A stretch of DNA of 64,000 nt from an uncultured bacterium (GCA_963813815.1 CAWFAD010000012.1:147590-211589); one strand, 5' to 3'. Counted from the first letter of the stretch, positions 17,501-36,631 are shown. Notes: generated by a model from the sequence alone, not told the origin. Made by a program: numbers and translations.

Positions 17501-20500
17501 ACGGCGTCGACGACGCTGGCGGAAGATACGGTGTTCGTGTAAGCGTCGATGGCGTCTTGCGCCCCGGCCGAGGCGGGGGCATGATACGTGACCGAAACGG
17601 TGCCGGTGCTATCGCTCGTGCCGCGGCGCATCGACAGAGTGAGCTCTTCCGTCGTGCTGCCGGCCGCTGCGCTCAGATAGCCGTCGGCGGGAGTGTCCTT
17701 GATGTAGATCGTGACGTTTTCGTTGAAAACGAGGTTGTTGAAACCGTCCCGGAGCGTGGCCGTTACGGTCGTTTCCGTGTTCACCGTCACCGGCTTGCTC
17801 GCGGGGGCGAGCGCGACGGAGGCGACAGGTCCGTGATCGGTCGTCGCCGTGAAGACCGCTTCGCGAACGGTCCCGGTGGAAATCGCCGCCGTCGCTTCGT
17901 TCGTGTTGAGACCGGCGACCGTTCCGAGCCGCCAGTATTCGCAGGATGCCGTTCCCGCGCCGCCCGTGACCGCCGTGGTCTGCACGCCCGCGAGCGCGAC
18001 GCTCGCGTCGATCGCGCCGCCCCCCGCCGTGGCGGCGAAGGCCACCGTGACGCCGGGCACCCGGTTTCCGAATGCATCCTCGACCGCGACGACGAGCTGC
18101 AGCGGCACCGGCGTATTGACGACCGCCCGCTGTCCGTCTCCGCTCACGGCGTAGACTCTATCCGCGCCCGCCGGAGAAACGGCGAGCGCCGTGGCGGACG
18201 CCGACGACACGCCGCCACTCGCCGCGGCGATCGTGATCGACTCCGCCAGGCGGTCCGTGATGAGGAGCTCCGCGTCCCCGCCGTCGATCGAGACGAACTG
18301 ATAGGTCACGGTATCGCCGGCTTCGGACACGATGAAGCCCGCGGCGTTTCCGAGCCCCCACGTCGCCTCGTCGGCGGCCGCGGCCCTCACCGGATATACT
18401 TTGACCGTTCCGGCGAACGAGGTGAGCTTGTTGTTGTTGGCGTCCCGGGCGTCGATCGACACCGCCGCGGGAACCCCGGCCGTAGCCGTCCCGCCGTGCG
18501 TGACGATAAAGTGGTGGAGCGCTCCCGCCGTAAACGCCACGGGTACGACGTCATCGAGGAGAGCGCCTCCCGCGCGCGCCCGGATGCTCTTTATCTCCGC
18601 CACGGTCGACCGGACGCTCCCGGCCGCCCGGCCGTCCGCGCCCGTCACGACCGAGGGCTGAGCAATAGTGTTGCCGCTTCCCGTGCATTCGAGGGTCACG
18701 AGAACGCCGGGGATCGGATTCGAATCGGCGTCGCGCACGTACACGGTCACGATCACGGCATCCGCGCCGTCGGCGATGATCGCCGTTTTGTCGACCTGGA
18801 TCTCGGAAACTACCGGGTCGAAGGGGCCCGGCACAAAGCTCACGGCGGCTCCCGCCGTGACGAGCGCACCGTCCACGCGAGCCCGAATCGTTTTCGTCTC
18901 GGCGACGGTCGATTTCACGCCGCCCCTCGCAAGGCCGTCCGGGCCCGTGAGCCCGACCGGCTGCCGTATGTCGTTCCCGCTCCCCGTGCACTCGAGCGCC
19001 ACGACGCTCCCCGAGATCGGGTTCCCTTCCCCATCCCGAACAGTCACCGTCACGAGCACGGAATCGGCGCCGTCGGCCGTGATCGTCGTCTTGCTCACAT
19101 CGAGGTCGGATACGTCAGGAGAGAAAGGCCCCGCCGCGAACGTGACAGGAATGCTCTCCGCCAAATAAACCGCGTCAACGAGCGCGCGTATCGTCTTACC
19201 CTCGGCCGCGGTCGATTTCACGCTTCCAACGGCCCGGCCCAGTACGTCGGTGAGGCTCCCCGGCTGCCGGATCGAGTTCTCCGTTCCCGTGCACACGATC
19301 GTCACGGCCTTGCCCGAGATCGGGTTCCCCTGCCCGTCCCGGACAGTCACCGTCACAACGATCGAGTCCACCCCGTCCGCCGTCGCCGTCGTCTTGCTCA
19401 CCGCAATGTCCGACACCGACGGATCAAACGGTCCCGTCACGAACGAGACGGGAATGCTCTCCACCAGGTAAACCGCGTCAACGAGCGCGCTGATCGTCTT
19501 CCCCTCGGCCGCGGTCGATTTCACGCTTCCAACGGCCCGGCCCAGTGCGTCGGTGAGGCTCCCCGGCTGCCGGATCGAGTTCTCCGTTCCCGTGCACTCG
19601 AGCGCCACAACGCTCCCCGAGATCGGGTTCCCCTGCCCGTCACGAACAGTCACCGTCACAACGATCGAGTCCACCCCGTCCGCCGTCGCCGTCGTCTTGC
19701 TCACCGCAATGTCCGACACCGACGGATCAAACGGACCCGTCACAAAGCTCACCGCCACGAGCTCCGTCAGATATATCCCGTTCGCTCGAGCGCGTATCGT
19801 CTTGCCCTCCGCCACCGTCGACGCCACGCTCCCCACCGCCACCCCACTCGCGTTCGTCACCGCACCCGGCTGCCGTACGTCGTTCCCGCTCCCCGTGCAC
19901 TCGAGCGCCACAACGCTCCCCGAGATCGGGTTCCCCTGCCCGTCACGAACAGTCACCGTCACAACGATCGAGTCCACCCCGTCCGCCGTCGCCGTCGTCT
20001 TGCTCACCGCAATGTCCGACACCGACGGATCAAACGGACCCGTCACAAAGCTCACCACCACCTGCTCCGTCAGATATATCCCGTTCGCTCGAGCACGTAT
20101 CGTCTTGCCCTCCGCCACCGTCGACGCCACGCTCCCCACCGCCACCCCACTCGCGTTCGTCACCGCACCCGGCTGCCGTACGTCGTTCCCGCTCCCCGTG
20201 CACTCGAGCGCCACGACGCTCCCCGAGATCGGGTTCCCCTCCCCGTCTCGAACAGTCACCGTCACAACGATCGAGTCCACCCCGTCAGCCGTCGCCGTCG
20301 TCTTGCTCACCGCAATGTCCGACACCGACGGATCAAACGGACCCGTCACAAAGCTCACCGCCACGAGCTCCGTCAGATATATCCCGTTCGCTCGAGCGCG
20401 TATCGTCTTGCCCTCCGCCACCGTCGACGCCACGCTCCCCACCGCCACCCCACTCGCGTTCGTCACCGCACCCGGCTGCCGTACGTCGTTCCCGCTCCCC

Positions 20501-23361
20501 GTGCACTCGAGCGCCACGACGCTCCCCGAGATCGGGTTCCCCTGCCCGTCTCGAACAGTCACCGTCACAACGATCGAGTCCACCCCGTCAGCCGTCGCCG
20601 TCGTCTTGCTCACCGCAATGTCCGACACCGACGGATCAAACGGACCCGTCACAAAGCTCACCGCCACCTGCTCCGTCAGATATATCCCGTTCGCTCGAGC
20701 GCGTATCGTCTTGCCCTCCGCCACCGTCGACGCCACGCTCCCCACCGCCACCCCACTCGCGTTCGTCACCGCACCCGGCTGCCGTACGTCGTTCCCGCTC
20801 CCCGTGCACTCGAGCGCCACGACGCTCCCCGAGATCGGGTTCCCCTGCCCGTCCCGAACAGTCACCGTCACAACGATCGAGTCCACCCCGTCCGCCGTCG
20901 CCGTCGTCTTGCTCACCGCAATGTCCGACACCGACGGATCAAACGGACCCGTCACAAAGCTCACCGCCACGAGCTCCGTCAGATATATCCCGTTCGCTCG
21001 AGCGCGTATCGTCTTGCCCTCCGCCACCGTCGACGCCACGCTCCCCACCGCCACCCCACTCGCGTTCGTCACCGCACCCGGCTGCCGTATGTCGTTCCCG
21101 CTCCCCGTGCACTCGAGCGCCACGACGCTCCCCGAGATCGGGTTCCCCTGCCCGTCTCGAACAGTCACCGTCACAACGATCGAGTCCACCCCGTCAGCCG
21201 TCGCCGTCGTCTTGCTCACCGCAATGTCCGACACCGACGGATCAAACGGACCCGTCATAAAGCTCACCGCCACCTGCTCCGTCAGATATATCCCGTTCGC
21301 TCGAGCGCGTATCGTCTTGCCCTCCGCCACCGTCGACGCCACGCTCCCCACCGCCACCCCACTCGCGTTCGTCACCGCACCCGGCTGCCGTATGTCGTTC
21401 CCGCTCCCCGTGCACTCGAGCGCCACGACGCTCCCCGAGATCGGGTTCCCCTCCCCGTCCCGAACAGTCACCGTCACAACGATCGAGTCCACCCCGTCCG
21501 CCGTCGCCGTCGTCTTGCTCACCGCGATGTCCGACACCGACGGATCAAACGGACCCGTCACAAAGCTCACCGCCACGAGCTCCGTCAGATATATCCCGTT
21601 CGCTCGAGCGCGTATCGTCTTGCCCTCCGCCACCGTCGACGCCACGCTCCCCACCGCCACCCCACTCGCGTTCGTCACCGCACCCGGCTGCCGTATGTCG
21701 TTCCCGCTCCCCGTGCACTCGAGCGCCACGACGCTCCCCGAGATCGGGTTCCCCTCCCCATCCCGAACAGTCACCGTCACAACGATCGAGTCCACCCCGT
21801 CCGCCGTCGCCGTCGTCTTGCTCACCGCGATGTCCGACACCGACGGATCAAACGGACCCGCCACGAAGACCGCCTCGAGGTCATGGGCGACGTATATACC
21901 TCCGCTCGAGGCAGTGACCGTCTTGCTCTCGGCCACGAGCGAGCGAATCGAGCCGCTCGCGAGACCGTTCACGTCCGTCGCTGCGGCGGGCTGGATGATC
22001 GTGTTGCCGCTTCCCGTCGCCTCGAATGCGACGGTCGCCCCCTCGATGCCGTTCGAAAACTCGTCGAGGATATGCGCGGCGAGCGGAACGGAATCGACCC
22101 CGTCCGCGACGGCGCTCGGGTCGCTCGAGACGATATCCGAAACTACCGGATCGTATGGGGCGTGATCGATGTAGATCGCGGCGGAGGCGGCCTCGAGCGT
22201 CGGAAAGACCCCGTCCTGATCGAGCAGGCCGAGGATGTAGGGAATGACGAGCTCCTTCAGGGTGTTGCGATAGTCGAGAGAGATGGAATACGAGCCGCTC
22301 GGAATAACGATCTGCGCGATCGGAGTCGAGTGATCGCCCGTCGTGTAAAAGCTCCCCGGCTGGCCGAAAAGCGAGATGGTCTGGCTGCTCGAAACAGGGC
22401 TCGGGTTGCCGAAGGCGTCCTCCACGAGCAGCCGGTACCTCACGTAGTCGCCCGCGACGGCGAGCGTATCCGCCGGCGCAACGAGGAGACGGAATGGCGT
22501 GCCGGGCAGGACGGTGATGCTCTGCTGCGGGTCGGCCCAATCCTGCCCCACTGCCGATGCCGTGATGGTCTTGACGCCCGCGACCGTATCGCGATAGTAG
22601 AAAGAGACGGTATCGGTTCCAACCGCAATCGTCACCGTATCGGTATCCGAAAAGCCCGCGCCCCCGAGATGCGAGAATCGTCCGGTAGGGGCGCTCGACG
22701 AAAGATACACGTCCAGATCCGCGGAAACGGGCGTTGAGTTCCCAAAGGCATCCACGGAGGAGAGACGAATCACGCTGCTTTCCGAGTCAGCCGGAAAGAC
22801 GCGCGGCGGAGTGACGAACGCGATCCCCGCGGTCGGGCCGCCCACGACGACATCGAGGGTCGGCGACGATGCGATGGGCACCCGAGGGCCCGGAGTGTTG
22901 GGATCTGAGCGCACCAGGAAAGGGACGTTGCTCTCGGGATAGGTCTGCGCCCTCGCCGCGCCGCCCGGATTCACTGAAACGTCGCCGTATATGACCGCCA
23001 CCGTCTGCCCCAAGCCGAGGGTCGTAATGTTGACGATAATGCTTTGCCCCGAGATCGTGATAGCCGGCGTTCCGAGAGTCCCGGCCGTCGAAGCCCTCAC
23101 GTAGCCAGCCACCAATGAGCTCAATATTTGCGGCGGACTCCATCCATCGGGAATAACGACCTCGATCGAGCCGACGGAGAATGTCTCCGCGCTCGTGTAA
23201 GTAATGGTCCACGTGCCATACGTGCCGACTATGACATCCGCCGACGGGCTGATGACGGCCGTGCCCGATCCCTCGGCGGCCCGAGCGCCAGGCCCGGCGA
23301 GCGCCGAGAGGACGAGCAACGCAATGAGCAGCGGAATGATTCTGGGGAATTGTTTTTTCAT
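8497..23361 (-). CDS. Giant (4,954 aa) secreted adhesin-like protein: signal peptide, Ig-like domains, 12 Big_1-type repeats, many CARDB-like modules, C-terminal Por_Secre_tail/FlgD-Ig-type sorting domain
   Basis: One continuous ORF. I chose ATG at 23361 (MKKQFPRIIPLLIALLVLSALAGPGARA, a classic signal peptide) rather than 23517. It carries recurrent V-x-N-x-G motifs. The C-terminus reads NYPNPFAAGSQETRICYFLL..VSIRIYDLAGILV..WDGRNARGETVRNGVYLCKVEAG. Confidence 0.9.
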   Translation of the reverse strand: MKKQFPRIIPLLIALLVLSALAGPGARAAEGSGTAVISPSADVIVGTYGTWTITYTSAETFSVGSIEVVIPDGWSPPQILSSLVAGYVRASTAGTLGTPAITISGQSIIVNITTLGLGQTVAVIYGDVSVNPGGAARAQTYPESNVPFLVRSDPNTPGPRVPIASSPTLDVVVGGPTAGIAFVTPPRVFPADSESSVIRLSSVDAFGNSTPVSADLDVYLSSSAPTGRFSHLGGAGFSDTDTVTIAVGTDTVSFYYRDTVAGVKTITASAVGQDWADPQQSITVLPGTPFRLLVAPADTLAVAGDYVRYRLLVEDAFGNPSPVSSSQTISLFGQPGSFYTTGDHSTPIAQIVIPSGSYSISLDYRNTLKELVIPYILGLLDQDGVFPTLEAASAAIYIDHAPYDPVVSDIVSSDPSAVADGVDSVPLAAHILDEFSNGIEGATVAFEATGSGNTIIQPAAATDVNGLASGSIRSLVAESKTVTASSGGIYVAHDLEAVFVAGPFDPSVSDIAVSKTTATADGVDSIVVTVTVRDGEGNPISGSVVALECTGSGNDIRQPGAVTNASGVAVGSVASTVAEGKTIRARANGIYLTELVAVSFVTGPFDPSVSDIAVSKTTATADGVDSIVVTVTVRDGEGNPISGSVVALECTGSGNDIRQPGAVTNASGVAVGSVASTVAEGKTIRARANGIYLTEQVAVSFMTGPFDPSVSDIAVSKTTATADGVDSIVVTVTVRDGQGNPISGSVVALECTGSGNDIRQPGAVTNASGVAVGSVASTVAEGKTIRARANGIYLTELVAVSFVTGPFDPSVSDIAVSKTTATADGVDSIVVTVTVRDGQGNPISGSVVALECTGSGNDVRQPGAVTNASGVAVGSVASTVAEGKTIRARANGIYLTEQVAVSFVTGPFDPSVSDIAVSKTTATADGVDSIVVTVTVRDGQGNPISGSVVALECTGSGNDVRQPGAVTNASGVAVGSVASTVAEGKTIRARANGIYLTELVAVSFVTGPFDPSVSDIAVSKTTATADGVDSIVVTVTVRDGEGNPISGSVVALECTGSGNDVRQPGAVTNASGVAVGSVASTVAEGKTIRARANGIYLTEQVVVSFVTGPFDPSVSDIAVSKTTATADGVDSIVVTVTVRDGQGNPISGSVVALECTGSGNDVRQPGAVTNASGVAVGSVASTVAEGKTIRARANGIYLTELVAVSFVTGPFDPSVSDIAVSKTTATADGVDSIVVTVTVRDGQGNPISGSVVALECTGTENSIRQPGSLTDALGRAVGSVKSTAAEGKTISALVDAVYLVESIPVSFVTGPFDPSVSDIAVSKTTATADGVDSIVVTVTVRDGQGNPISGKAVTIVCTGTENSIRQPGSLTDVLGRAVGSVKSTAAEGKTIRALVDAVYLAESIPVTFAAGPFSPDVSDLDVSKTTITADGADSVLVTVTVRDGEGNPISGSVVALECTGSGNDIRQPVGLTGPDGLARGGVKSTVAETKTIRARVDGALVTAGAAVSFVPGPFDPVVSEIQVDKTAIIADGADAVIVTVYVRDADSNPIPGVLVTLECTGSGNTIAQPSVVTGADGRAAGSVRSTVAEIKSIRARAGGALLDDVVPVAFTAGALHHFIVTHGGTATAGVPAAVSIDARDANNNKLTSFAGTVKVYPVRAAAADEATWGLGNAAGFIVSEAGDTVTYQFVSIDGGDAELLITDRLAESITIAAASGGVSSASATALAVSPAGADRVYAVSGDGQRAVVNTPVPLQLVVAVEDAFGNRVPGVTVAFAATAGGGAIDASVALAGVQTTAVTGGAGTASCEYWRLGTVAGLNTNEATAAISTGTVREAVFTATTDHGPVASVALAPASKPVTVNTETTVTATLRDGFNNLVFNENVTIYIKDTPADGYLSAAAGSTTEELTLSMRRGTSDSTGTVSVTYHAPASAGAQDAIDAYTNTVSSASVVDAVYSSVSSGATDLRATVLAGATSQAGITFSFVVEAVDGNGNRDLANSSRILLQASVDGGFSFSLSDFGATITEADLASGAVIIYGRGTRAGSWQIDALDEAAVLAPAQIPILIVANDVVSSYVVTAPAAAVAGAEFAVTAEARDLYGNRVASAGYTVDFRAVEASDSTQTASSALSPASGTLVNGLFAGANFRYTVAEPIRVEVSSVSNAVKGYSGAVSVGNAAAYQLVKIGGDSSGVAVGDSVRLAARVLDAYGNTVDGHSVFFTVQEGGGAISSPLAVSDAAGVARAWFRTDTLCGTNRARAAILDASPEGLETQGFTVTTVPRSAIDRVALSLPGTSFTAGEMFTCEVAAYDVYGNLIDTDSSTGLRAVAERASIDFTPDVMTLLAGVSSFTAFDSTAGANRIAVLSLAGDTLAPWSAEIAIEPAAAYRVVEVNGDTSGVIAGASVDLRARVTDRYGNAAPDEIVRFQVTSDLGGSPVLWDGTGAANDGLVLTDAGGAALCALTTDANAGVNSVSASILDASPPLLEQVVFDVGTIAGTIARFDVIPDGFAKKAGESFAVEIIAYDGYGNEAFDDDTTRVLLASDGSATFAVNPVTLSAGRATASARDTVAELLVLRARTLAGGATSYSGTITVSPEAPSGAIGIATVIPDTITANGTSTSAISTGAIRDVYGNVVAPGTLVRVTASAGTVISEDKDPSTPLTVERQTEASGAVSVFVRSATSPAVSTVEFQSVTGSAVGSVAVVFAPAPVCLYAGYLAPRHLLPTEPAQFRCSTSNTSPTGTYLSTATTISFADSLGHVYEAHLAAPAFLRGSATDTLDFQTVVVPAGLLGGTYTPRVALAGNDIYGFSYRGEFSAGSNSVSVSDVDILQVVSEKAIVSRGDTFTVDVRVRNGGGSTVSVIDITLKFANGFYGMAGDWNPPLPDDLAPGAERLYRHDIFALGYSPLGFDTIDASITAQANGSQVQDQTAYPNVSVIFVQAAASLSYVASTLDPDTVSRGQTHSFSLSVRNAGDAALILDPSETRLSFTDGADAVSVPLGYAGAIPGNTATALVFPPVSVPTAMDAGSWPVAVRLRGTENGGFFDTTLVLSDEMRVVDPAAVSYVIGTLAPAVVSKQSDVSFGVGVANSGGASVLCDPDSTWFTFTDGSLTYAASLDATRGRTIDPGVATLYFRAAVVPSDMAVGSYPPSLAIGGSENGLRFASIFALADSVGVQEPSQLAITSTTVLPAPMVTADQATPWFASVQVRNNGGATVRLESFSMRLLAGPVDVTGECILAPLDFTPNVDSLLGGETRAILVRLDDNPSGAMTTGTIVIESALAGRDLNSGASLLATTEYGGKGSYLVQTPASLVFAAVTASTDTVTALQTKDWFCDVAVRNAGQSDLGLDLDPAASFIAFSTSGDFIVVPPVELAGGGVVLEGGSTDTLRWRIDRSGSVAGPCVVESTVRGTELTSGRIISLASGDQGISGDVLVQTPAALAISRITPLQNPVTVSQDRAWSVEMEVRNTGQSDAALELGRIDSTRVVIPGGSGFVIDNPLALVEGGTVLRGGAAGRLVFTVSTTGMISPGTLALAGSVLAVETTSDRHVFASRAAPEDTVTFELPPDPSYVTGSLAPLAASSGTSVSFEAAIAADAGLRSTLTLDRSATTLSFGDADGDTVRTSLSDVSPNVLPSASQQTLLFDAALVDVALSLGRHAAFIRLVGEENGNPFSTVLPLSPDSVLVEQAPQLGISGIVTPQSVTRSQTEPWNVWMKLRNSGEASVSLDLAAAKTFLTFTIVGVGDRTYEYTVVRPAALSGIGGAILPGGAVDSLLFTVTSTGSTPGIALVNGTVTGTDVNSNLTVSDDTYSGGFSHVMVELPGDPAVVSSAPSRATVTSAQTTPWQIACEVCNAGEADLTLIPDSARVYRDEGLPLAHARPPAFVEGGLDLPGGECRHLVFSVSPTPEIPAGADIELHADVELVENNNGVHRSYDTRLDGSGSGSIRVQAQARLAVALAATAAPRAPYVDSGQQFVVVAEVANGGEARVENVGVALEGSGSSAIADTLVFIDAIAGFASASDTFLVTADGEGSEIFTARIRSAVDANSGESDYVLFDAAVDDTALAVIQRPAALVVTAVTPSQEAVNAGQTIEWTIDVGVRNDGEAPLEIDAAASDDLAFSIDGVSVGGYLVIAPETFVSGASPLVLEGGAADTLLYRIAATGRDTGSVDIAATLGWIDGNEPEAPRPPASGSGSVLVRPPSGLRIVAVTSDAPNNASFANTSIVNTGQTFNLTVRVENTGGDDLDSVLVRLATSGVSGTLVEGDSLAYMPSRTERDFVYAVTAAPSSAVEYLRASIVKAVSVNTGEPVTPAEAVESIENLRIETAALLACGASITSPAGAIDDTLSTGQIFVVTVLVENAGEAAIDTTGRVTLALPVSMSLADPADPLTRRFDAGAPLEWTLVAPAAPSLDTLRASISSVPNDINIGSPAAIQTAESRIVARTEEAGGIAECSVSVAAPAGAVDGVLSTDQEFVARVALVPSVNADSVWAELSAPAGYAVAGDMIKFVGAGAGELVTLDWTVRAPSIAAPVDTLVGRAGGVDANSGERLPVRRVVFAVRAVEKAALALAGRISGPDGALDGILSVNQSFTIEATAANAGEAGVDTAGARIELVLPSGQNYDLDGAGETYRKPFYPGEPVAWNVRAPAEPTSPGNLQIRFVEPLAEDVNTNLACAVTTGEVFLPVQTETGAVRMLNLSSLDTIPPVVVPQGAAGVPIMRAEFENTSGYTIGLDTLYVAIKDGTGRLVSPPSRRVSGVALVAGGVRFEAAVSEANPVPIVAGHAFEVVPGAADTLLLTADIAANAPAGEIRFEIEESADVVFSITLEGGGAGSRVGVVDDQGGDIAGSFLSGPLTVLSARFEDYVHNYPNPFAAGSQETRICYFLLEDAAVSIRIYDLAGILVWTKEIASGEEGGTGSADGIMHEIPWDGRNARGETVRNGVYLCKVEAGSQSALFKIAVAK
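18534..22170 (-). repeat. Tandem array of twelve 303-bp (101-aa) Big_1-like Ig-domain repeats inside the giant CDS; about 7-9 units are near-identical (~19,300-21,870)
   Basis: The same strings recur at exactly 303-bp offsets (cacaaagctc at 19741, 20044, 20347 and so on). The protein unit is GPFDPSVSDIAVSKTTATADGVDSIVVTVTVRDG[EQ]GNPISGSVVALECTGSGND[IV]RQPGAVTNASGVAVGSVASTVAEGKTIRARANGIYLTE[LQ]VAVSF. Confidence 0.92.
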
Positions 23362-23655
23362 CTTTCGAATCCGGCTCCCGGCCCTGTTTTCGCAGCTGAT
23401 TCGGAAAATTCGCAAGGTGTGTGCCAACACCCCGTTAACTGCTGAAACGCCGGGAAAAGGGCCCGGGCTTTCAGGGAAGACGGCTCGCCGCGAGAATCTC
23501 CGAATGCCACTGAGCATCGTAACTGATTCCGGGACAAGCAGTTAACACCATTCCTTGGAGCTGGTTCGAAGCGGCGTAATCCCTCTTCGCCGCGGACTTC
23601 ACCGGATGAACGATCCGCGGCGTCCGCTATCACGGCCCGGCATCGCCACACGCTG

Positions 23656-23684
23656 AAAATAGCAAACTCCCGGGCAAATCGCAA
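23656..23684 (-). promoter_or_regulatory. Candidate sigma-70-type promoter for the giant gene (TTGCGA-N17-TATTTT)
   Basis: Minus-strand reading gives TTGCGA tttgcccgggagtttgc TATTTT, located ~290 nt upstream of ATG 23361 in a 466-bp intergenic gap. Confidence 0.4.
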
Positions 23685-23827
23685 CACCGCCGCCATTCTT
23701 AACTTTTTGAAATATCGATTATTATGCGGCTCCGCGCAGCCGCCGGAGCGCTCCGGCGGAGGCCGCCGGCCGTGCAGCCGACCGAATGAATTCCGCCGCG
23801 GAGAGCGGAGCTCGAAGGCCCGCTCGA

Positions 23828-24220
23828 TCACGGTCCGACCACGACCACGGAATTGTACCCCCCGAAGCCGTCCTTTTCGCGCTCGGGGTTGCCCGGGTCA
23901 GGAAGCCATCTCTCTCCGTCGACAACGTACTTGTATTCGTACCGGCCGGGCCCGAGCGGAAGCACGACCGTCCACAGCCCGGTCCCTTCTCGATCGAAGA
24001 GCGGATCCGCGCCGGGCGACCATCCGTTGAAATCGCCCGCGATCGCCACCCTCTGAACCTTGGGCAAATAGAGGCTGAAGCGCGTCCCCCCCTCGACGGG
24101 CTCCGGTCCGGCGGCGCCGCCGCCTTGGCCGATGCCGGGATATCCCGTGCCGCACGCGGGCAGAAGCGCCGCGGCGATCACGACGAGAGCAAGAGCCAGT
24201 TTCTTCGGCGTTCGTTTCAT
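23828..24220 (-). CDS. Lipoprotein with CBM48/AMPK-beta glycogen-binding-like (E-set) domain
   Basis: Lipobox LLPAC. Domain signature FSLYLPKVQRVAIAGDFNGWSP...GLWTVVLPLGPGRYEYKYVVDGERWLPDPGNP. Confidence 0.75.
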   Translation of the reverse strand: MKRTPKKLALALVVIAAALLPACGTGYPGIGQGGGAAGPEPVEGGTRFSLYLPKVQRVAIAGDFNGWSPGADPLFDREGTGLWTVVLPLGPGRYEYKYVVDGERWLPDPGNPEREKDGFGGYNSVVVVGP

Positions 24221-24223
24221 GAT

Positions 24224-24631
24224 TCACGGCACGATGAGCAGGTTCGCCTTTCCTCCTCTCCCGTCATCCACGATCCGCGGGTTATCCGGATCGAAAAGCC
24301 ATTCCGACTCGTTCAGGAGAAATCGATAGCGATAGCGGCCCGGCTCGAGGCGCACCGTGATCTCCCAGACCCCGTCCTCCTCCGCGTTCTTCATGAGACC
24401 GACGAGAACCTCTCCCCCTTCCGCGTCGCCGCGCGCCCAGTTGTTGCCCGCCCAGTCTCCCGCGATCTGGACGGTTCGGGCCGAGGGGCTCTTCACGCGG
24501 AAGGTGATCTCGTCCCCCGATATCACGGGCGAGGCGACGCGGCGTTCGAGCAGGCCTCCGCATGAGCCCGCCGCGCCGATCAAGGCCAGGAGGGCGCCGA
24601 TCGCCAACCCAATCGACGTTCCGATGCGCAT
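24224..24631 (-). CDS. Lipoprotein with CBM48/AMPK-beta-like domain (paralog of 23828-24220)
   Basis: Lipobox-like AGSCG. Signature ITFRVKSPSARTVQIAGDWAGNNW...GVWEITVRLEPGRYRYRFLLNESEWLFDPDNP. Only 3 nt separate it from the next gene. Confidence 0.75.
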   Translation of the reverse strand: MRIGTSIGLAIGALLALIGAAGSCGGLLERRVASPVISGDEITFRVKSPSARTVQIAGDWAGNNWARGDAEGGEVLVGLMKNAEEDGVWEITVRLEPGRYRYRFLLNESEWLFDPDNPRIVDDGRGGKANLLIVP

Positions 24632-24654
24632 GAGCCGATTATACTCCGGCGTCG

Positions 24655-26595
24655 TCAGAATGTAAAACCCGCTTGCAGGGTCACGAGCCAGTCGTCCGCG
24701 AGCGCCTCCTCGGCGTCGAGCAACCTTCTCACGGCCGCCTGCTCCCCCAGCGCGGCGAGGACGCCGAACGGGTTACGCTCCTCGAGGTAACGCTCGCGCC
24801 CCCATGCGGCATAATCCCACAGCCATCGATCGAACGCATAGGGGGCGACGCCGCACCCGACGAGGCACCAGCAGGAGGAGGCGATCTTCGCGTGCAGCCC
24901 GAGAAACGCAGCGACAAAATCGCCCCGAGTCTCGCCGTAGCCATAGGATACCCCGCGCATGTCCAGAATGAGCGCGGCGCGCGGGTGAACGAACGTTCCA
25001 TTCGACAAACGGACCTCGACCGTGCGCGGGGAATACACCCCCGCGCCCGAGCGGTGTCTGACATCCACGGCCGTGCCGGATCCCCAGGAAAGACCGTCGA
25101 ACGGCTCCCGTCTCCAGGCGAGCGACATATGGATCTCGCGCAGCTCGCGCGAGGAGAGGAACGGCAGCCGGTCGAGCGTGACGCCGTCGCCGTCGAGCCA
25201 GAAATTCTCCGCCGACAGCCACCAGCGGTTCCCGGCGCCCGAGGCGCCGTAGATCTCGATCTCGCCCGCGAGCGTCGCCTCGAACGCTCCCCCTTCGTAC
25301 GAGATCTCGCCGCCGACATTCTCCCTGGTATGCTCCGGGGCGACGGCGGCGAGCTCCTCTATCACGTCGCGCGCGAACGTCGCGCGCGCGTCCACGCGAG
25401 CGCCGTCGCGAGAGACTCCGACGATGAATCGATATCCTCTCTCCCACTCGCGCTCGATGGACGACGGCGCGAACGTATCGGCGACGGAGGTCAAAGCTGC
25501 GGCGGCGATCCGATCGCTCCCTCCGAGCATGAACGCCCCCTCCAATCGCCAACCCTCCTCTCCTGGAATCTCGATGCGCCCACCCCACATTTCCACCCTT
25601 TCGTACCCTCGGCACATCGTTCCGGCGCTCTCCGGGTCCGGCCACGCCCCCGCCATCGTCCTTCGGTCGAGACGGTACAGGGCCTGGAGCCGGGCCGAAC
25701 CGGCCTTCGCCTCCACCCGCGCGCCGAACGCGTCGGCGTCGAGCATTTCTCTTTTCGCCGACGAATCCCCCGCCGACGCCATTCCCTCGAGCCCGCAGCC
25801 GCATCCACCGAGGCGGTTCGCATAGACGATCCGGGCATCGAGACCCCCGACGAGCCTGCCCGTGAATCCGGCGCCGCGGCTCATGAGCCCGGCAGGGTAA
25901 TCGTACGGTCCGATCCGGCCGAAGAGCGGAAGAGCCTCTCCGTCCTCGGCGAGCGCGGAGGCGGACCTATTGAAAAGGTGAATCGTGCGGCCGCCGAAAT
26001 CGTACGCAGCGGATCCTCTCGCGAGGAACGAAGCGCCATCGAGGGCTTGCTCATCCCCCGCGCGAGCGTCGAACCCGACGGTGCAATCCATGCTCGCCCG
26101 CTCGTCGAACGAGCCGGCGACGCGGACGGAACCGCCGAGCGTCGCCTCTTCCGGCCGGGCGGCGAGGCGGATCTCCCCGCCGATCCCGATACGCTCGCGC
26201 TCACGGGTTCGCTCGGAGCGGGAGTCGGCGCTGAGCAGGAGCTCGAGACCTCCCGGCGACTCGAGAATCGTAAAGCACGAGTTGCCGTCGGCATCCGCGC
26301 AGGGATTATCCGGATCCGCCGTCGAGACGCCGTCCGCGACGAAGCGGTATCGGTAGGAACCCGGAACGAGATAGAGCCGGATTTCGAAAACGCTGTCGAG
26401 GACCGCCATGAGATCGACCGTCGGGTTCCATCCGTTGAAATCGCCGACGAGGTAGACCCTCGCGGCGCCCTCCGCCCGCAGACGGAACACGACCTCCTCC
26501 TCGTCGACCGATACGGAAGCGCCGGCCGGCCCCGCCGAGAGGAGGACGATGAGGACGGCCGCGGCTATCGTGCGAAGGGGGTTCACGGCGTTCAC
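24655..26595 (-). CDS. Secreted protein: N-terminal CBM48-like domain plus a large putative outer-membrane beta-barrel
   Basis: Signal peptide AAAVLIVLLSAGPAGAS. Signature VVFRLRAEGAARVYLVGDFNGWNP...FEIRLYLVPGSYRYRFVADGVSTADPDNP. The rest is ~520 aa rich in alternating Gly/aromatic residues ending ...TLQAGFTF (OMP-like terminal Phe). GTG start overlaps the upstream stop (GTGA). Confidence 0.7.
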   Translation of the reverse strand: MNAVNPLRTIAAAVLIVLLSAGPAGASVSVDEEEVVFRLRAEGAARVYLVGDFNGWNPTVDLMAVLDSVFEIRLYLVPGSYRYRFVADGVSTADPDNPCADADGNSCFTILESPGGLELLLSADSRSERTRERERIGIGGEIRLAARPEEATLGGSVRVAGSFDERASMDCTVGFDARAGDEQALDGASFLARGSAAYDFGGRTIHLFNRSASALAEDGEALPLFGRIGPYDYPAGLMSRGAGFTGRLVGGLDARIVYANRLGGCGCGLEGMASAGDSSAKREMLDADAFGARVEAKAGSARLQALYRLDRRTMAGAWPDPESAGTMCRGYERVEMWGGRIEIPGEEGWRLEGAFMLGGSDRIAAAALTSVADTFAPSSIEREWERGYRFIVGVSRDGARVDARATFARDVIEELAAVAPEHTRENVGGEISYEGGAFEATLAGEIEIYGASGAGNRWWLSAENFWLDGDGVTLDRLPFLSSRELREIHMSLAWRREPFDGLSWGSGTAVDVRHRSGAGVYSPRTVEVRLSNGTFVHPRAALILDMRGVSYGYGETRGDFVAAFLGLHAKIASSCWCLVGCGVAPYAFDRWLWDYAAWGRERYLEERNPFGVLAALGEQAAVRRLLDAEEALADDWLVTLQAGFTF

Positions 26596-28115
26596 ATGCC
26601 TCCGAGGGAATAGCGTCCCGAGATGACGAGCGATCTCTCTTCCGGCGGGGCGAGCGGCTCATCCCCGAACCGGATAGCGGCCTCCTCGAAGCCCGGCGCG
26701 AACGATCCCGCGGCGACGGTCAGAAGAAATCGTTCGTGCGGCCTCAGATCCAAGCCGACGCTGTACCGGGTCGTGCCGCCTCCGAAGAGGTAGAGCGCGC
26801 CTCCCGCGGTGAGGGTTCCCGTGAGCCTCATCGAGCTTCGGGCGAGGAACGCAACCTCGTTCCCGTCTCCCGCGTCGTCGATCCGCGTCACGAGACTCGT
26901 TCGCGCCAGTCTCGCGTCGCTCGCGATCGAAACGACGAACGACGATCGCTTCCCGTCGGCGGCGAGGATCCTGCCCGAGAGCTCGAGACCGCCCCGGCAG
27001 CGCGCCCGCGCCTCGGCGGCGAGGCGCCGGCCTTCGCCCGTGTCCCGGCGGCCGTTCGACGCGTCTATCGAGAGAAGGGCGTCCCTCTTCAGCGGCCGCC
27101 ACCACGCGAGCACGCTCGCCTCGTCGGTCCCCGGCGCGAGCTCTCCCTGGGGATTCGCGAAGGAGGCGCCGACGAAGCGATAGGCGGGGACGAATCCGGC
27201 CGAGCCGAAGCGCCCCGCTCGAAACGAAAACCCCTCGATCCCGGCGGAGAACGCGTCGTTCTCCGAAAAAACGGCCGACGGGGCGCCGGGCTCGAAGCGC
27301 TCGAAATCGAGATCGAAAAACGAATCGTCCCGGAGATCGTCCCATCTGCCGCGCCGCGAGCGCGCGAGCTCGGCGACGAGAGCGATTCCGCGCGCCGCGG
27401 CTCCGATATCGACGCCAACCGTCACGGCGTCCCCGGCGGCGATCGACCGGACCTCGGAGAGAAGGGCCCCAGCCCGGATGCGCCCTCCCCCCGCCGCTTC
27501 GATTCGCAGCAGGCGGAACACGTCGACGCCGCCATGAAAGAGCGGAAGCCCCCCCACCGTCTCCGCCGCCTCCCGATCTCTCGCGGCGCTCTCGATATAT
27601 TCGATACGCACCCGCGGGATCACGCGCGCGACGATCCTCGCGCCCTCCGCCCTCCCCTCGAGCAGCGCCGACTCATCCGAAACGATCTCCATGAGCCGGT
27701 GGTTCGTGCGGAATTGCCGCTCCCGCAGAAACAATCGTCCCTCGATCGCACCCCCGGGCAGAGCGAACGCGGCGTGCCCCTGATCGAGCATGAAGCGATT
27801 CTCGAAACCCCATCCCGCGAGACGGCGGCCCGAGGCGCCCTTGAGAAACACCGACACGCCTCCCCGGGGGCGCAGCTCGCCCATTGCCGCGAGCCGGTCG
27901 GCGAGATGCGAGGCGGATTCCTCTTCGTTCCACGGGAAGGCGGCTGATGACCGGACGACGTCGAGCCGCGCCGAGTAGACGGCGCCCCAGACGAAGCGCG
28001 GCAGAGAATCCGCGGCGGCCTCGGCGCATCGAGCCGCGGCCGGGAGGCCGCAGAGCGCGAGGCAGGCCGCGACGAGACCGGCCGTCCAGGCGATCCCTCG
28101 AGTCCGCATCCTCAT
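26592..28115 (-). CDS. Secreted hypothetical protein, possible outer-membrane beta-barrel
   Basis: Start chosen at ATG 28115 (MRMRTRGIAWTAGLVAACLALCGLPAARCAEA, signal-peptide-like), which overlaps the upstream stop as ATGA. The longer 754-aa track ORF overlaps the upstream gene in another frame. I recognise no family. Confidence 0.6.
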   Translation of the reverse strand: MRMRTRGIAWTAGLVAACLALCGLPAAARCAEAAADSLPRFVWGAVYSARLDVVRSSAAFPWNEEESASHLADRLAAMGELRPRGGVSVFLKGASGRRLAGWGFENRFMLDQGHAAFALPGGAIEGRLFLRERQFRTNHRLMEIVSDESALLEGRAEGARIVARVIPRVRIEYIESAARDREAAETVGGLPLFHGGVDVFRLLRIEAAGGGRIRAGALLSEVRSIAAGDAVTVGVDIGAAARGIALVAELARSRRGRWDDLRDDSFFDLDFERFEPGAPSAVFSENDAFSAGIEGFSFRAGRFGSAGFVPAYRFVGASFANPQGELAPGTDEASVLAWWRPLKRDALLSIDASNGRRDTGEGRRLAAEARARCRGGLELSGRILAADGKRSSFVVSIASDARLARTSLVTRIDDAGDGNEVAFLARSSMRLTGTLTAGGALYLFGGGTTRYSVGLDLRPHERFLLTVAAGSFAPGFEEAAIRFGDEPLAPPEERSLVISGRYSLGGM

Positions 28116-29041
28116 CGCCAATCTCTCTCCCGCGCCGCGAAGATCACTCCCTCGCAGAAAAGGCTCCACGTGACGCCGTCCGCCCCCTCGTTCGCGAACG
28201 AGACACCCGCCCGCAGCCGGGATCCGGTCCAGCGAAGCCCGCCCGTCGCGTCGCCGTCCGAGAGGCCGAAGATGAGCTCGACCGGCAGAGCCGCGCGGGC
28301 GCTCACTCCGAAATGCCCCTTCGTCTCGCCGCCCACAGCGCTCCGCGCGATCGAAAGCACGATCGTGTTTTCCCAGAAATAGGAGACGCCCCAACGAGCC
28401 GTCCTCCCCCAGCGGAGGGGACCGGCGTCGTCGGCGCCGCGATCGAACAGGTTGCCCGCGGCGTACCCGAACGAGATGGCGGGAAGCGGGCGGACGACGA
28501 TTCCGAGATCGGCGCTCGCCGGCGACCACTCGCCGCCGTCCTCGAGCGGCGATGCGGCTCCGCCGGTCCTTCCGGCGACGGCGGCGGCCCCGATCGCGAT
28601 GTACGATCCCTGCGTGCCGGCGAGGAGGGTGCGCGCGGCGCCCGCCGCTATGAAATCCTCGCTCGAGAGCGGCCCAGCGAGCCGGTACCAACCGAGGCCG
28701 CAGATCGCGGGCCCGGCGTTTCCGGCTATCGCGAGGCGCGTTTCGCGCGCGTGCGCCTTCGCGGAAGGCTCGGCGTAATCGGCATACGACTCGAGCCCCC
28801 CGATCGAAACGAGACCGGCGGGATTCACGAAGAGCGCGCCGGCGCCCCCCGCGCACGCGACGGTGGCCCCGCCGGCGGCCGTCGAGAGCGCCGCGAGGGC
28901 CGCCCGGTCGAAGCGGGCGAGCGCCGGAGCGGCGTTCGCGAGCGGAATCGACGCGATCGCGCAGAGGAAAATCGCGCCGGAGAGAGGGCGCGATCCGCCG
29001 ATCCGGCGCCCGCCCCGGTTTCCGTCAATCATCCGCCTCAT
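28112..29041 (-). CDS. Secreted hypothetical protein, PorV/FadL-like small beta-barrel
   Basis: Signal peptide IFLCAIASIPLANA. GGAGALFVNPAGL resembles the N-terminal motif of the 6590-8500 barrel. The sequence is Gly/Ala-rich with alternating strand patterns. Confidence 0.6.
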   Translation of the reverse strand: MRRMIDGNRGGRRIGGSRPLSGAIFLCAIASIPLANAAPALARFDRAALAALSTAAGGATVACAGGAGALFVNPAGLVSIGGLESYADYAEPSAKAHARETRLAIAGNAGPAICGLGWYRLAGPLSSEDFIAAGAARTLLAGTQGSYIAIGAAAVAGRTGGAASPLEDGGEWSPASADLGIVVRPLPAISFGYAAGNLFDRGADDAGPLRWGRTARWGVSYFWENTIVLSIARSAVGGETKGHFGVSARAALPVELIFGLSDGDATGGLRWTGSRLRAGVSFANEGADGVTWSLFCEGVIFAARERDWR

Positions 29042-29512
29042 CGATTCGCTTGAGCCCCTCGAGAATGAGGTAATCGAGCTTGACGTCGAGGAGAATGTCC
29101 TCGTCCTGCGGAGCGCAATCCTTCATAAAGAGAAACGATCCCTGCTTCCACGCGAGCACCTCGTACACGACCTCTTTCATGAGCTCGTGAATGGCGGACA
29201 CGAGCGTGTCGTGATCGATGAGCTTGCGCGCTATGAGGGTGTTTCCGATGCGTCCGGAATGCTTGGCGTCGGCGTGCTCGCGGAGCACGGCGTTGAGATC
29301 CTTGCGTTCGATCCAGCCCTTCTCGATCAGGAATTCGCCGAGCTTTTCTTCCGCGAATCGATCGTCGCGCAGATGAGCTCCCCCTTCTTGAAGTAGAAGC
29401 TCGCGACGTTCTCGGGAGTCACGAACTTGAGCTCGCCCGTGATCCGCGCCATATTGGCGATCTGGATGACGAACGCCGGATCCAGTAGCGCTAGGTCCCC
29501 GCCGAAATCCAT
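29025..29512 (-). pseudogene. DUF4388 (PATAN-type) domain protein, split by one frameshift
   Basis: Two adjacent ORFs (29327-29512 and 29025-29288) read through as ...FYFKKGELICATIDSRKK|LGEFLIEKGWIERKDLNAVLREHADAK... if one A is added to the coding-strand AAAA run at 29344-29347. The GDLALLDPAFVIQ...GEL.F pattern is DUF4388-like, from memory. Confidence 0.65.
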
Positions 29513-29611
29513 GGCTCCCCCTTCCTGTCCGGAGCGGAGCGCGGCCGTCGAGCCGGGAAACTCGGGCGAGGCCGCGCTCCGCCGCGGTTTCGCACGTTTC
29601 GCTTCACCGCG

Positions 29612-32309
29612 TCAAGCCTTCAGCGCGGCCTGGGCGGCCGCGAGAATCGCGACGGGCACGCGGTACGGCGAGCAGCTCACGTAGTCGAGGCCGACGCGGT
29701 GGCAGAACGCTACCGACGAGGCTCGCCTCCGTGCTCGCCGCAGATCCCCATCTTGAGGCGGGGATTGACGGAACGGCCCTTTTCGACGCCGATCGTGACG
29801 AGGTCGCCGACGCCGTCCTCGTCGAGCACCTCGAACGGATCGGCCGGCCAGATCCCGTGCTCGAGGTAGCCGTGAGAAAGCTGCCCGTGTCGTCGCGGCA
29901 GATGCCGAGCGCCGTCTGCGTGAGATCGTTCGTGCCGAACGAGCAGAAGTCGGCGACCTCGGCGATCTCATCGGCGCGAATGCAGGCCGCGCGGGGGAGC
30001 TCGATCATCGTGCCGCACAGGTACGCGACGGAGGGCTCCTCGGCGGCGACGCGCTCGGTCAGCTCGCGCAGCCGCGCGAGCTCCTCGCGGAAGCCGACGA
30101 GCGGATGCATGATCTCGACGAGCGGCGCCTCCCCCGCCCGAGCCTCCACGGCTGCCGCTGCGCGCACGATCGCCCGCACCTGCATCTCGTAGATCTCGGG
30201 GAACTGGAGGCCGAGCCGGCAACCCCGGGTGCCCGAGCATCGGATTCGCCTCGTGGAGCTCGAAGATGCGGTGCCGCATCGCGTCGCTCGTTGCTTCTTC
30301 CGGCGAGGGCAAGAACTCGTGCAACGGCGGGTCGAGGAGGCGAATCGTGACGGGGAAGCCCGCCATCGCCTCGAAGATGCCCTCGAAGTCGGTCTGCTGC
30401 ACCGGGAGGAGCTCGGTCGAGCGCCGCGCGCCGCTCGCTCTCGGTCGACGCCAGGATCATCTCCTGCACGATCGGGAGCCGATCGGGCGCCATGAACATG
30501 TGCTCGGTGCGGCAGAGGCCGATCCCCTCGCGCCGAACTCGACCGCCTTGGCGGCATCCTCGGGCGTGTCGGCGTTCGCGCGCACTCGGAGGCGGCTGAA
30601 CTCGTCGGCCCAGCCCATGAGCTCGTCGAAATCCCGGTACAGCGCCGAGGCGTCCCCTCGAGGGTCTTGTCGATGATCACCTGGAGCACCTCGGACGGCT
30701 TCGTGTCGATCTTTCCGGCGATCACCTCGCCCGTCATGCCGTCGATCGAGATATGCTCCCCCTCGCCGATGACGCGGCCGCCGACCGTGATCGTGCGTTT
30801 CTTGTAATCGATGGAAAGATCCTTCGCCCCGACGACGCACACCTTCCCCATCTGACGGGCGACGAGCGCCGCATGAGAGGTGGCGCCCCCCGTGGCGGTG
30901 AGAATGCCGGCCGCGGCGCTCATTCCCCGGATGTCCTCCGGGCTCGTTTCGACGCGCACGAGGATGACTCGCTCACCGCGCCCCGCCCACTCCTCGGCGT
31001 CCGCGGCGTTGAATACGACCTTGCCCGTCGCGGCTCCCGGGCCGGCGTTGATGCCCTTCGCGACGAGCCGTCCTTCCCGGCAGGCCCGATCCTTCCCCGC
31101 GGGGTCGAAGACGGGCCGCAGAAACTGGTTGAGTTGCTCGGGCTGAATCCGGCGGATCGCCTCCTCCTTCGTGATGAGCCCCTCGCGCACCATGTCGATC
31201 GCGATCTTGATGGCGGCGAATCCGGTGCGCTTCCCCGATCGCGTCTGGAGAATCCAGAGGCGGCCCTTCTGTATCGTGAACTCGAGGTCCTGCATGTCGG
31301 CGTAATGGAGCTCGAGGGCCCGGCGGACTTCCTCGAGGGCCTCGTAGATCGCGGGCATCTCATCCTCGAGAGAGACGAGGTCGCACTCCCCCTTCTGCCG
31401 GCGGTTGATCGGCTGCGGCGTTCGGATGCCGGCGACGACGTCCTCCCCCTGCGCCTTGATGAGGTACTCGCCGTAGAAAACGTTCTCGCCCGTCGCCGGG
31501 TTCCTCGTAAAGGCGACGCCGGTGCCCGAATCGTCTCCGAGATTGCCGAAGACCATCGCCTGCACGTTCACCGCCGTACCCCACGAGTCGGGTATGCCGT
31601 TGAGCCGCCGGTAGGTCTTGGCGCGATCGTTGTTCCACGAGTTGAACACGGCGCCGATCGCCTTCCAGAGCTGCTCCATGGGATCGGACGGAAACTCCAT
31701 CCCGAGGGCCGAGCGAATCATGTCGCGGTAGCGCCGTATGAGATCGACGAGATCGGCGACGCTGAGCTCGACGTCTTTCTCGACGCCGGCCTCGCGCTTC
31801 TTCGCGGCGAGTATCTCCTCGAAGGGATCGTGGTCGTCCTTGTTCGCGGGCTTCAGCCCGAGCACGACGTCGCCGTACATCTGGATGAAGCGCCGGTAGC
31901 AGTCGTAGGCGAACCGCTCGTCCCCCGTGCTGGCGGCCAGCGCCTTGACCGTCTCGTCGTTGAGACCGAGGTTCAGCACCGTGTCCATCATGCCGGGCAT
32001 GCTGGCGCGCGCGCCCGAGCGGATCGAGAGAAGCAGCGGATTGCTCTTCGCGCCGAATCGCGCATCCATCTCCTTCTCGACCTTCTTCAGGTTCTCCGCG
32101 ATCTCGGTCTCGATCCCCGAAGGGTACGCGCCCCCGTTCAGGTAGAAATGCGTACAGACCTCGGTCGAGATCGTGAAGCCGGCCGGCACCGGGATGCCGA
32201 GGTTCGTCATCTCCGCGAGCCCCGCTCCCTTGCCCCCCAGAAGCTCCTTCATGGAGCGGTTCCCCTCGGCCTTGCCTCCGCCGAAGAAATACACGTGCTT
32301 GGCCTTCAC
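29612..32309 (-). pseudogene. ppdK: Pyruvate, phosphate dikinase, N-terminal ~550 aa intact, C-terminal ~350 aa broken by six frameshifts
   Basis: Motifs GGKGAGLAEM, TGGATSHAALVARQMGK (catalytic His loop), [25 protein letters not shown] and VSCSPYRVP are all present but spread over three frames. Pieces appear in track ORFs 29604-32372, 30457-30840, 30059-30499, 29968-30402 and 29612-29971. Likely start is GTG 32309, preceded by GGAGG 6 nt upstream. Confidence 0.85.
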
Positions 32310-32477
32310 GGAAGACCTCCTATTCGATTTTTTATCAATGGGTTGCACCGATATCGAACGGGCGTTTTTCATGCTGTCAATGTATAGCGCAGCGGGAGAA
32401 AAACGGCAAGATAATTATGCGCCGCCGACCCTCAGGGCCCCGCCGGCTCCTCGAGCGCTTCCCGCCCCGCGCGTGGG

Positions 32478-36596: not shown

Positions 36597-36631
36597 CGTG
36601 CCTCCTTTTTCAGCGCCCCCGCCGTGAAACG

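Follow-up and report, generated by a model that had tools for sequence, protein, structure and literature searches.

A conserved outer-membrane gene cassette as a candidate apparatus for alpha-glucan capture and uptake in FCB-group bacteria

What function is served by a compact set of genes that places glycogen-binding-type domains both on small lipoproteins and on an outer-membrane barrel? The question is raised by a 64,000-nt stretch of DNA from an uncultured bacterium (GCA_963813815.1 CAWFAD010000012.1:147590-211589; the whole stretch is hereafter the window), in which five genes, A to E, form a cassette next to the gene for a giant secreted protein. The first-pass annotation took the cassette for a carbohydrate-binding outer-membrane complex, possibly accompanying that giant protein. 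The reading we favour, which we judge to have about an even chance of being correct, is that the five proteins form an outer-membrane complex for the capture and uptake of alpha-glucans, with an anchor barrel in type IX secretion system (T9SS) style, and that this is a conserved module of bacteria in the Fibrobacterota-Chlorobiota-Bacteroidota (FCB) group. It is drawn from sequence comparison and structure prediction.

The layout first described was reproduced throughout. All five open reading frames (ORFs) are co-directional on the minus strand, with the coordinates first assigned to them (Table 1); the stop codon of A overlaps the start of B in an ATGA (28112-28115), that of B overlaps the start of C in a GTGA (26592-26595), and, read on the minus strand, gaps of 23 nt and 3 nt separate C from D and D from E. 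Signal-peptide-like N-terminal segments are present in A and B. The cassette is also conserved as a unit, well beyond what chance would give, and each Krumholzibacteriota locus of sufficient length repeats the order: S8 protease, PPDK, PatA_N, A, B, C, D, E, giant gene. This sample comprised 12 species-representative genomes and several metagenome contigs, extending down to ~30% protein identity.

Related modules within alpha-glucan gene clusters

The evidence that carries the uptake reading comes from outside the Krumholzibacteriota, where the module sits inside alpha-glucan utilisation gene clusters. These remote modules are recognisable from their A-like proteins (E 1e-49 to 1e-89), from C-like barrels (E-values reaching 4e-24) that share the layout of CBM48 domain, barrel and terminal Phe, and from B-like proteins (hhalign probability 94%, E 1e-7; phmmer E 6e-18 for that of locus L088). 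One locus, L026, comes from a metagenome-assembled genome (MAG) of the Fibrobacteraceae, and the others from unclassified metagenome contigs and MAGs. Alpha-glucan genes adjoin the module in seven loci that are not of the Krumholzibacteriota type (Table 1). The first-pass annotation had remarked that the CBM48 domains lack a catalytic partner, and locally this stands, with none in the window; at the level of the family it does not, as related modules adjoin genes for glycoside hydrolases (GH) of families 13 and 57, pullulanase, debranching enzyme and maltodextrin-type ABC transporters. Hence the association of CBM48 with enzymes holds for the family, and the position of the module beside starch-degrading enzymes in its relatives makes it probable that its task is to capture or import alpha-glucans and not solely to serve the giant protein.

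The same neighbourhoods bear on whether the cassette might instead be a generic envelope complex, porin-like or structural, without specificity for glycans, its proximity to amylases being incidental or the product of a search seeded on CBM48. Three loci on short contigs (L093, L094 and L096) have no alpha-glucan gene within those contigs, and the Krumholzibacteriota loci are without such genes, both of which would suit a generic role. However, the route to several of the alpha-glucan loci was protein A, which is devoid of CBM48, and therefore the choice of search seed does not fully account for the association; it is found in seven independent loci; and E shows conservation of the canonical binding residues. 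We consider a generic complex distinctly unlikely. In a Latescibacterota MAG (L089), a distant A-like gene lies beside a TPR protein gene and ExbBD genes, without B or C.

The binding domains and the barrel proteins B and C

Each of the three Ig-like domains likened to CBM48 by the first-pass annotation proved to be a member of that family, scoring above the Pfam gathering cut-offs for AMPK1_CBM (PF16561, 26.8 bits) and CBM_48 (PF02922, 22.4 bits): the domain of C (aa 25-111, nt 26263-26523) reaches 44 and 27 bits respectively, that of D 29.5 and 26.9 bits, and that of E 34.7 and 43.2 bits. The signature of about 85 aa said to be common to the three is approximate. The domains are related (33-35% pairwise identity, BLASTP E 1e-12 to 1e-15), but the strict pattern fits none of them exactly, and that of D carries an inserted loop, GDWAGNNW...GDAEGGEVLVGLM. 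D and E are small lipoproteins by their sequences, with lipoboxes ...AAGSC and ...LLPAC; the Cys and a lipobox-like context are kept in all the orthologues inspected (11 for each protein).

A profile of the E family (17 lipoproteins) matched solely alpha-glucan CBM48 proteins in the PDB, with E-values down to 2.8e-11; these were type II pullulanase, AMPK beta, GlgB, SEX4/LSF and SIP2. Four residues, W100, K126, W133 and N150, are what we take to be the glucan contacts of AMPK-beta1, to which the domains of C, D and E were aligned. On this alignment the E family keeps all four contacts across its 17 sequences, with W67, W105 and N123 invariant and K97 nearly so. The cassette domains resemble the CBM48/AMPK-beta domains of GlgB, pullulanase, SEX4 and AMPK beta in their Pfam membership and, in E, in the Trp/Lys/Trp/Asn set, but differ in standing alone on lipoproteins or being fused to an outer-membrane barrel, whereas elsewhere the domain belongs to an enzyme or kinase subunit. 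A relationship of D and E to T9SS plug proteins, an idea that arose from a weak NF052315 match of an L025 lipoprotein with three CBM48 domains, was rejected, the E-family profile retrieving no plug protein from the PDB at E <= 1.

Homologues of C fall into 57 clusters, all of about 645 aa, and every taxon-named one is from the Krumholzibacteriota. The AlphaFold2 model of C, made from 52 sequences (pLDDT 86.2, pTM 0.74), has an N-terminal Ig-like domain and 22 long antiparallel strands. The barrel (aa 134-645) is formed by strands at aa 134-582 and 638-645, the final strand being preceded by a helical insert (aa 599-634). The terminal Phe, F646, is invariant in 52 homologues and closes a tail, ...LQAGFTF, whose alternating hydrophobic residues follow the outer-membrane beta-signal pattern. 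The large C-terminal region ending in Phe, remarked on in the first-pass annotation, is therefore a real barrel by this model, and C as predicted combines the marks of an outer-membrane beta-barrel protein, namely a signal peptide, a closed barrel of antiparallel strands and, at the C-terminus, an aromatic beta-signal. Neither Pfam nor NCBIfam holds a model matching the barrel, and Foldseek returned only a generic likeness to 22-strand TonB-dependent transporters (TM 0.3-0.43, 5-12% identity). That C might be such a transporter, or a SusC, was rejected, as no Plug or TonB_dep_Rec match was found at E <= 1 and the N-terminal domain is CBM48. Since the number of strands is even, the topology rule places this domain on the periplasmic side; by the same rule, the helical insert and the most conserved motif of the barrel, NFWLDGD... 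(aa 458-479), should lie in extracellular or lumen-inserted loops.

A wide, plugless barrel with a CBM48 domain that both the model and the topology rule place in the periplasm might instead export or anchor an alpha-glucan made by the cell, such as a glycogen-like capsule or exopolysaccharide, with C as the pore and periplasmic CBM48 domains guiding the nascent chain, and the lack of TonB or ExbBD genes beside the Krumholzibacteriota cassette agrees with this. However, no locus has glycosyltransferase, Wza/Wzc-type or synthase genes nearby, and the neighbours are instead GH13, GH57, pullulanase and debranching enzymes with importer-type ABC systems that include solute-binding proteins. Export is hence very improbable.

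B belongs to a family of 17 members with no Pfam, NCBIfam or PDB match, and descent from a common ancestor with the barrel of C as its paralogue was rejected at an hhalign probability of 1%. Its period-2 amphipathicity is like that of C and A, and unlike that of cytosolic controls. The remote B homologues end in Phe, Tyr or Trp; B of the window ends ...YSLGGM. Together, the signal peptide, the amphipathicity and the aromatic ends of these remote homologues indicate that B is probably a beta-barrel. Of the two proteins described as barrel-like at the outset, A gains backing from homology to the PorV/FadL superfamily, while for B the AlphaFold2 model, made from six close homologues and consisting entirely of hairpins, is unreliable (pLDDT 35.6).

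An uptake apparatus built from these parts might work as follows. D, E and the CBM48 domain of C would hold chains of starch, glycogen or maltodextrin at the outer membrane. The wide barrel of C would be the conduit for the chain, with conserved loops and the helical insert as its gate in place of a TonB-dependent plug, and binding on the periplasmic side could serve as a ratchet. A would act like PorV or PorQ, keeping at the surface a partner that bears a T9SS C-terminal domain; this partner would be a protein here named X in many lineages, and in the lineage of the window, which is without X, the nearest such protein is the giant adhesin. B would be a further membrane subunit.

Protein A, its partners and the giant gene

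An exhaustive HMMER search for A gave a family of 62 representative relatives, nearly all of 290-310 aa. They share the motif ARSxAMGGAFxxLADDxSALFxNPAG, which aligns to the N-terminal hatch of FadL/TodX/PorV barrels. The best PDB match of the family profile was Flavobacterium PorV (6h3i_F, E 0.0039), followed by TodX/CymD; when 49 members were compared with Pfam, 16 matched Toluene_X, 15 UPF0164 and 13 TraF_2 (best E 1.6e-6). The NCBIfam model of the PorV/PorQ family, NF033709, has a curated cut-off of 90 bits. This is exceeded by the A-like protein of L025 (91.8 bits; A-family profile E 5e-58) and by A'-TPR, a full-length paralogue of A encoded on the far side of the giant gene (108.5 bits; A-family profile E 1.6e-30), and not by the A-like protein of L026 (43.8 bits). 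Through these relatives, A itself would be a divergent barrel of the PorV/PorQ type, an assignment that comes by transitivity rather than from a direct test. A homologue search with a combined A and B alignment found three proteins only.

The comparison with known T9SS barrels is instructive on both sides. As with PorV, PorQ and PorP/SprF and their partners (PorU-PorV, PorZ-PorQ, SprB-SprF), the PorV/PorQ model accepts A'-TPR and relatives of A, A has the FadL-like N-terminal NPA hatch motif, the cassette barrel gene adjoins genes for proteins with T9SS-type C-terminal domains and, as with SprB-SprF, a giant repetitive adhesin is a neighbour. In contrast, A is shorter (~270 aa mature, rather than ~370-400) and below the curated threshold, and its gene invariably accompanies those for B, C and CBM48 lipoproteins, which lack T9SS counterparts. 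In Flavobacterium, T9SS substrate genes are known to be linked to shuttle barrels dedicated to them (PMC12618676), and several FCB phyla outside the Bacteroidota have T9SS-type signals and machinery on report or by proposal (PMC11285876, PMC6851124). A'-TPR also has a parallel in the FadL orthologues of Treponema pallidum, TP0548, TP0859 and TP0865 (Pfam UPF0164), which carry a C-terminal helical or TPR extension (PMC8407342). In both, a barrel of FadL type precedes a TPR region that is presumably periplasmic, A-family members match UPF0164, and the L087 orthologue of A'-TPR does so weakly; however, the TPR region of A'-TPR is much longer (~320 aa), its genomic context is different, and the similarity is below threshold.

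A candidate partner for A is X, a protein of ~410 aa encoded directly upstream of A in many modules and absent from the locus in the window. It has a signal peptide, a ~300-aa N-terminal domain without any Pfam or PDB match, and a FlgD_ig/T9SS-like C-terminal domain ending ...VVR. Proteins with FlgD_ig-type C-terminal domains are encoded directly upstream of A in L025, L026, L086, L087, L088 and L090-L092, with only a 131-aa mini-version of X in L086, and tblastn adds L094 and L096, in which X likewise lies upstream of A.

The giant protein itself carries a C-terminal type A sorting domain of the T9SS, which scores 26.8 bits with TIGR04183 (cut-off 23) and lies at residues 206-297 within the final 300; with A of divergent PorV/PorQ type, A may have an anchoring role. 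The cassette could then be a dedicated T9SS accessory module for the giant, with A and A'-TPR receiving and anchoring it through its C-terminal domain, B and C supplying the rest of an outer-membrane platform, and the CBM48 domains acting as structural or protein-binding Ig-like modules. This is in keeping with the scores of the giant and of A'-TPR above their respective thresholds, with PorV-like barrels encoded on both sides of the giant gene, with other cargo genes that have dedicated shuttle barrels (PMC12618676, PMC9143113), and with gene order: the giant gene follows E in nearly all loci with enough flank (L002, L004-L013, L015, L085, L086, L090 and L096). The exception is L087, in which PatA_N-X-A-B-C-D-E is followed directly by A'-TPR and the SpoIIE/STAS genes, and the giant gene is absent. 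The module is thus kept without its supposed client, and the giant gene is an optional insertion beside the cassette. Furthermore, the modules outside the phylum have alpha-glucan enzymes and no giant neighbour, the conservation of the glucan-binding residues of E is not needed for a purely structural role, and E and the giant gene are 466 nt apart. Hence the tie to the giant protein suggested by the first-pass annotation is an optional one, missing in L087 and the modules outside the phylum; we think it unlikely that the cassette exists to serve the giant. The lineage of the window has lost X and gained the giant T9SS adhesin as an insertion, and the function there may have drifted towards surface adhesion.

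The gap between E and the giant gene is non-coding and of similar size (~370-490 nt) in the orthologous loci L001 and L002. It has no Rfam family and no terminator-like site, and may hold the promoter and leader of the giant gene. A seemingly short giant gene in L001, a complete genome, was rejected as evidence of gene loss, as it starts after E and runs into a 100-N scaffold gap; the repeat region of the giant has there collapsed into this gap beside an IS3-like transposase fragment. In the window, the ~13 nearly identical tandem repeats of the giant coincide with a strong local excursion in GC skew, which is -0.32 at 20-22 kb, and the other strand carries long spurious ORFs over the same stretch. 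In alpha-glucan-type modules, the position that the giant adhesin has in Krumholzibacteriota, after the CBM48 lipoprotein, is taken by a protein of 850-970 aa with CarboxypepD_reg repeats (Table 1).

Downstream of A'-TPR, in a conserved position, an ORF of 1410 aa encodes what is probably a partner-switching regulator, which could regulate the cassette by that means. Its orthologues in L087 are separate (863 aa, STAS and STAS), so it may be a real fusion or a frameshift artefact. FlgD_ig/T9SS-like C-terminal domains are also found in the S8 protease, whose TIGR04183 score of 20.6 bits is below the cut-off, and in two further ORFs without Pfam matches, which suggests that the genome encodes many T9SS-type substrates. 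Between 35 and 44 kb, ORFs on either strand have no Pfam matches and GC content is lower (60-62%). Rfam and tRNA scans of the whole window gave no matches.

Upstream of the cassette, the PatA_N gene is split by one 1-nt frameshift near 29343, and the PPDK gene is broken by at least four. An independent short-read freshwater metagenome assembly of a near-identical strain carries one extra base at 29343 and another at 30653; the frameshifts are therefore probably indel errors of assembly rather than marks of pseudogenes. The independent assembly has no indels within its covered parts of A-E, whose ORFs align with their orthologues over the full length. A sigma-70-type site upstream of D (TTTACA-17-TATAAT, 24638-24666, minus strand) matches 11 of 12 consensus positions; 7 nt lie between its end and the ATG of D, and the surrounding region has ~68% GC. 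It was rejected as a promoter candidate, with one such site found against 0.5 expected in shuffles, which is no enrichment.

Table 1. Features of the window and of related loci
Locus	Feature	Coordinates	Strand	Description
Window	Gene A	28112-29041	minus	309 aa; signal peptide and predicted divergent PorV/PorQ/FadL-type outer-membrane barrel
Window	Gene B	26592-28115	minus	507 aa; signal peptide and beta-rich new family, probably outer-membrane barrel
Window	Gene C	24655-26595	minus	646 aa; signal peptide, CBM48, predicted 22-strand beta-barrel, helical insert, terminal Phe
Window	Gene D	24224-24631	minus	135 aa; lipoprotein, CBM48 with inserted loop
Window	Gene E	23828-24220	minus	130 aa; lipoprotein, CBM48
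Window	Gap between E and giant gene	23362-23827		466 nt, non-coding
Window	Giant secreted protein	8497-23361	minus	~4954 aa from MKKQFPR; Big_1/Invasin_D3 repeats, CARDB-like region, T9SS type A sorting domain
Window	Repeats of giant protein	~17300-22200		~13 nearly identical tandem Big_1/Invasin_D3 repeats, ~100 aa each
Window	A'-TPR	6590-8500	minus	636 aa; full-length A paralogue (aa 15-314) and ~320 aa of coiled coil/TPR; TPR Pfam matches
Window	Regulatory ORF	2361-6593	minus	1410 aa; HATPase_c_2 (anti-sigma-type kinase), sCache, HAMP, SpoIIE phosphatase, HTH, three STAS
Window	PatA_N/DUF4388 gene	29031-29512	minus	directly upstream of A, overlaps start of A; position conserved
Window	PPDK gene	29604-32372	minus	at least four frameshifts
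Window	S8 protease	32478-34877	minus	FlgD_ig/T9SS-like C-terminal domain
Window	ORF	35334-37079	minus	FlgD_ig/T9SS-like C-terminal domain
Window	ORF	near 41176-41493	minus	FlgD_ig/T9SS-like C-terminal domain
L025	Alpha-glucan genes			CBM48-GH57-glucodextranase-module protein; ABC sugar importer (solute-binding protein, two permeases)
L026	Alpha-glucan genes			two GH13 amylases, one with five CBM48 domains
L129	Alpha-glucan genes			two GH13 amylases
L088	Alpha-glucan genes			pullulanase, GH13 enzymes, CBM20 esterase
L091	Alpha-glucan genes			GH13 with three CBM48 domains
L092	Alpha-glucan genes			glycogen debranching enzyme, GH13, solute-binding protein and permeases (ABC transporter), multi-CBM48 proteins
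L095	Alpha-glucan genes			maltose-type solute-binding protein; GH57-like C-terminal module
L087	X	8869-9984		
L088	X	8772-10004		
L090	X	8772-10004		
L091	X	8772-10004		
L092	X	8739-10004		
L088	CarboxypepD_reg-rich protein	15223-18135		
L092	CarboxypepD_reg-rich protein	15162-17732		
L093	CarboxypepD_reg-rich protein	~5190-7420		

The proposed apparatus among known systems

Several points weigh against an alpha-glucan uptake complex. Firstly, the sample of gene neighbourhoods is small, and its searches were seeded on the CBM48 motif or on A. Secondly, no glycoside hydrolase or sugar transporter is encoded in the window, and the conserved neighbours in Krumholzibacteriota are PPDK, the S8 protease, PatA_N and the giant adhesin; with no alpha-glucan genes among them, the function may have shifted in this lineage. 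Thirdly, on the alignment to AMPK-beta1, the D family keeps the first Trp and the Asn, has Arg in place of Lys and retains the second Trp in only some orthologues, and the domain of C has only the first Trp of the four contacts, the second being absent. Fourthly, annotation places CBM48-like folds on enzymes with substrates other than alpha-glucans too, such as GH9 cellulases of Fibrobacter (PMC6851124). Fifthly, the CBM48 domain of C should by topology be periplasmic, and D and E could face either side of the membrane. Lastly, A itself has no direct Pfam match, no NCBIfam match at E <= 1 and no score reaching a curated PorV/PorQ threshold, and B, a new family, has an AlphaFold2 model of low confidence.

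If the uptake reading is right, the closest functional comparison is with the starch utilisation system (Sus) of Bacteroides (SusC, SusD, SusE, SusF and SusG). Both are outer-membrane modules found in alpha-glucan loci, with a 22-strand barrel and small lipoproteins made of starch-binding Ig-like modules, and relatives of the cassette have GH13 neighbours with multiple carbohydrate-binding modules. The differences are as marked. C has neither plug domain nor TonB box, and the cassette has no SusD-like lid; its binding modules are CBM48 rather than of the SusE/F type, with one of them fused to the N-terminus of the barrel; and it adds a PorV-like barrel and B, without sequence homology to any Sus protein. 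The cassette would therefore be a TonB-independent functional analogue of the Bacteroides Sus outer-membrane apparatus, assembled from different parts. TonB-independent passage of alpha-glucan oligomers through the outer membrane is also what the proposed role of C shares with the LamB maltoporin and the CymA cyclodextrin channel; however, C has 22 strands rather than the 18 of LamB or 14 of CymA, carries a fused CBM48 domain, and has no sequence or specific fold match to either. The module is in these respects related to known Sus-like glycan uptake and to the shuttle and anchor pairs of the T9SS.

Full-text literature searches returned no description of this module, and for a CBM48 domain fused to a large outer-membrane barrel our searches found neither a curated family nor a paper. 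B and the barrel of C are two protein families without any curated model. Where public annotation is present, it reads merely "glycogen-binding domain-containing protein" or "hypothetical", and so dozens of such proteins become readable as parts of a single unit.

In FCB bacteria outside the Bacteroidota, including the Fibrobacterota, the Krumholzibacteriota and many candidate phyla, how fragments of polysaccharide pass the outer membrane is largely unknown, and the module is a concrete and testable candidate for this step. Its constant pairing with a PorV-like barrel, often together with a protein bearing a T9SS-type C-terminal domain, suggests that parts of type IX secretion have been reused in nutrient-uptake complexes. 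A bolder proposal, which we regard as rather doubtful, is that X-A-B-C-D/E constitutes a new type of TonB-independent glycan-import machine in the non-Bacteroidota FCB phyla. Its parts would be a plugless 22-strand channel to which a periplasmic CBM48 ratchet is fused, the CBM48 lipoproteins, B as a new large subunit, and a PorV-like barrel recruiting a surface protein that the T9SS delivers. Were this true, such a machine would be a functional replacement for SusCD and a direct tie between type IX secretion and the uptake of nutrients, with coupling to a giant adhesin in the Krumholzibacteriota.

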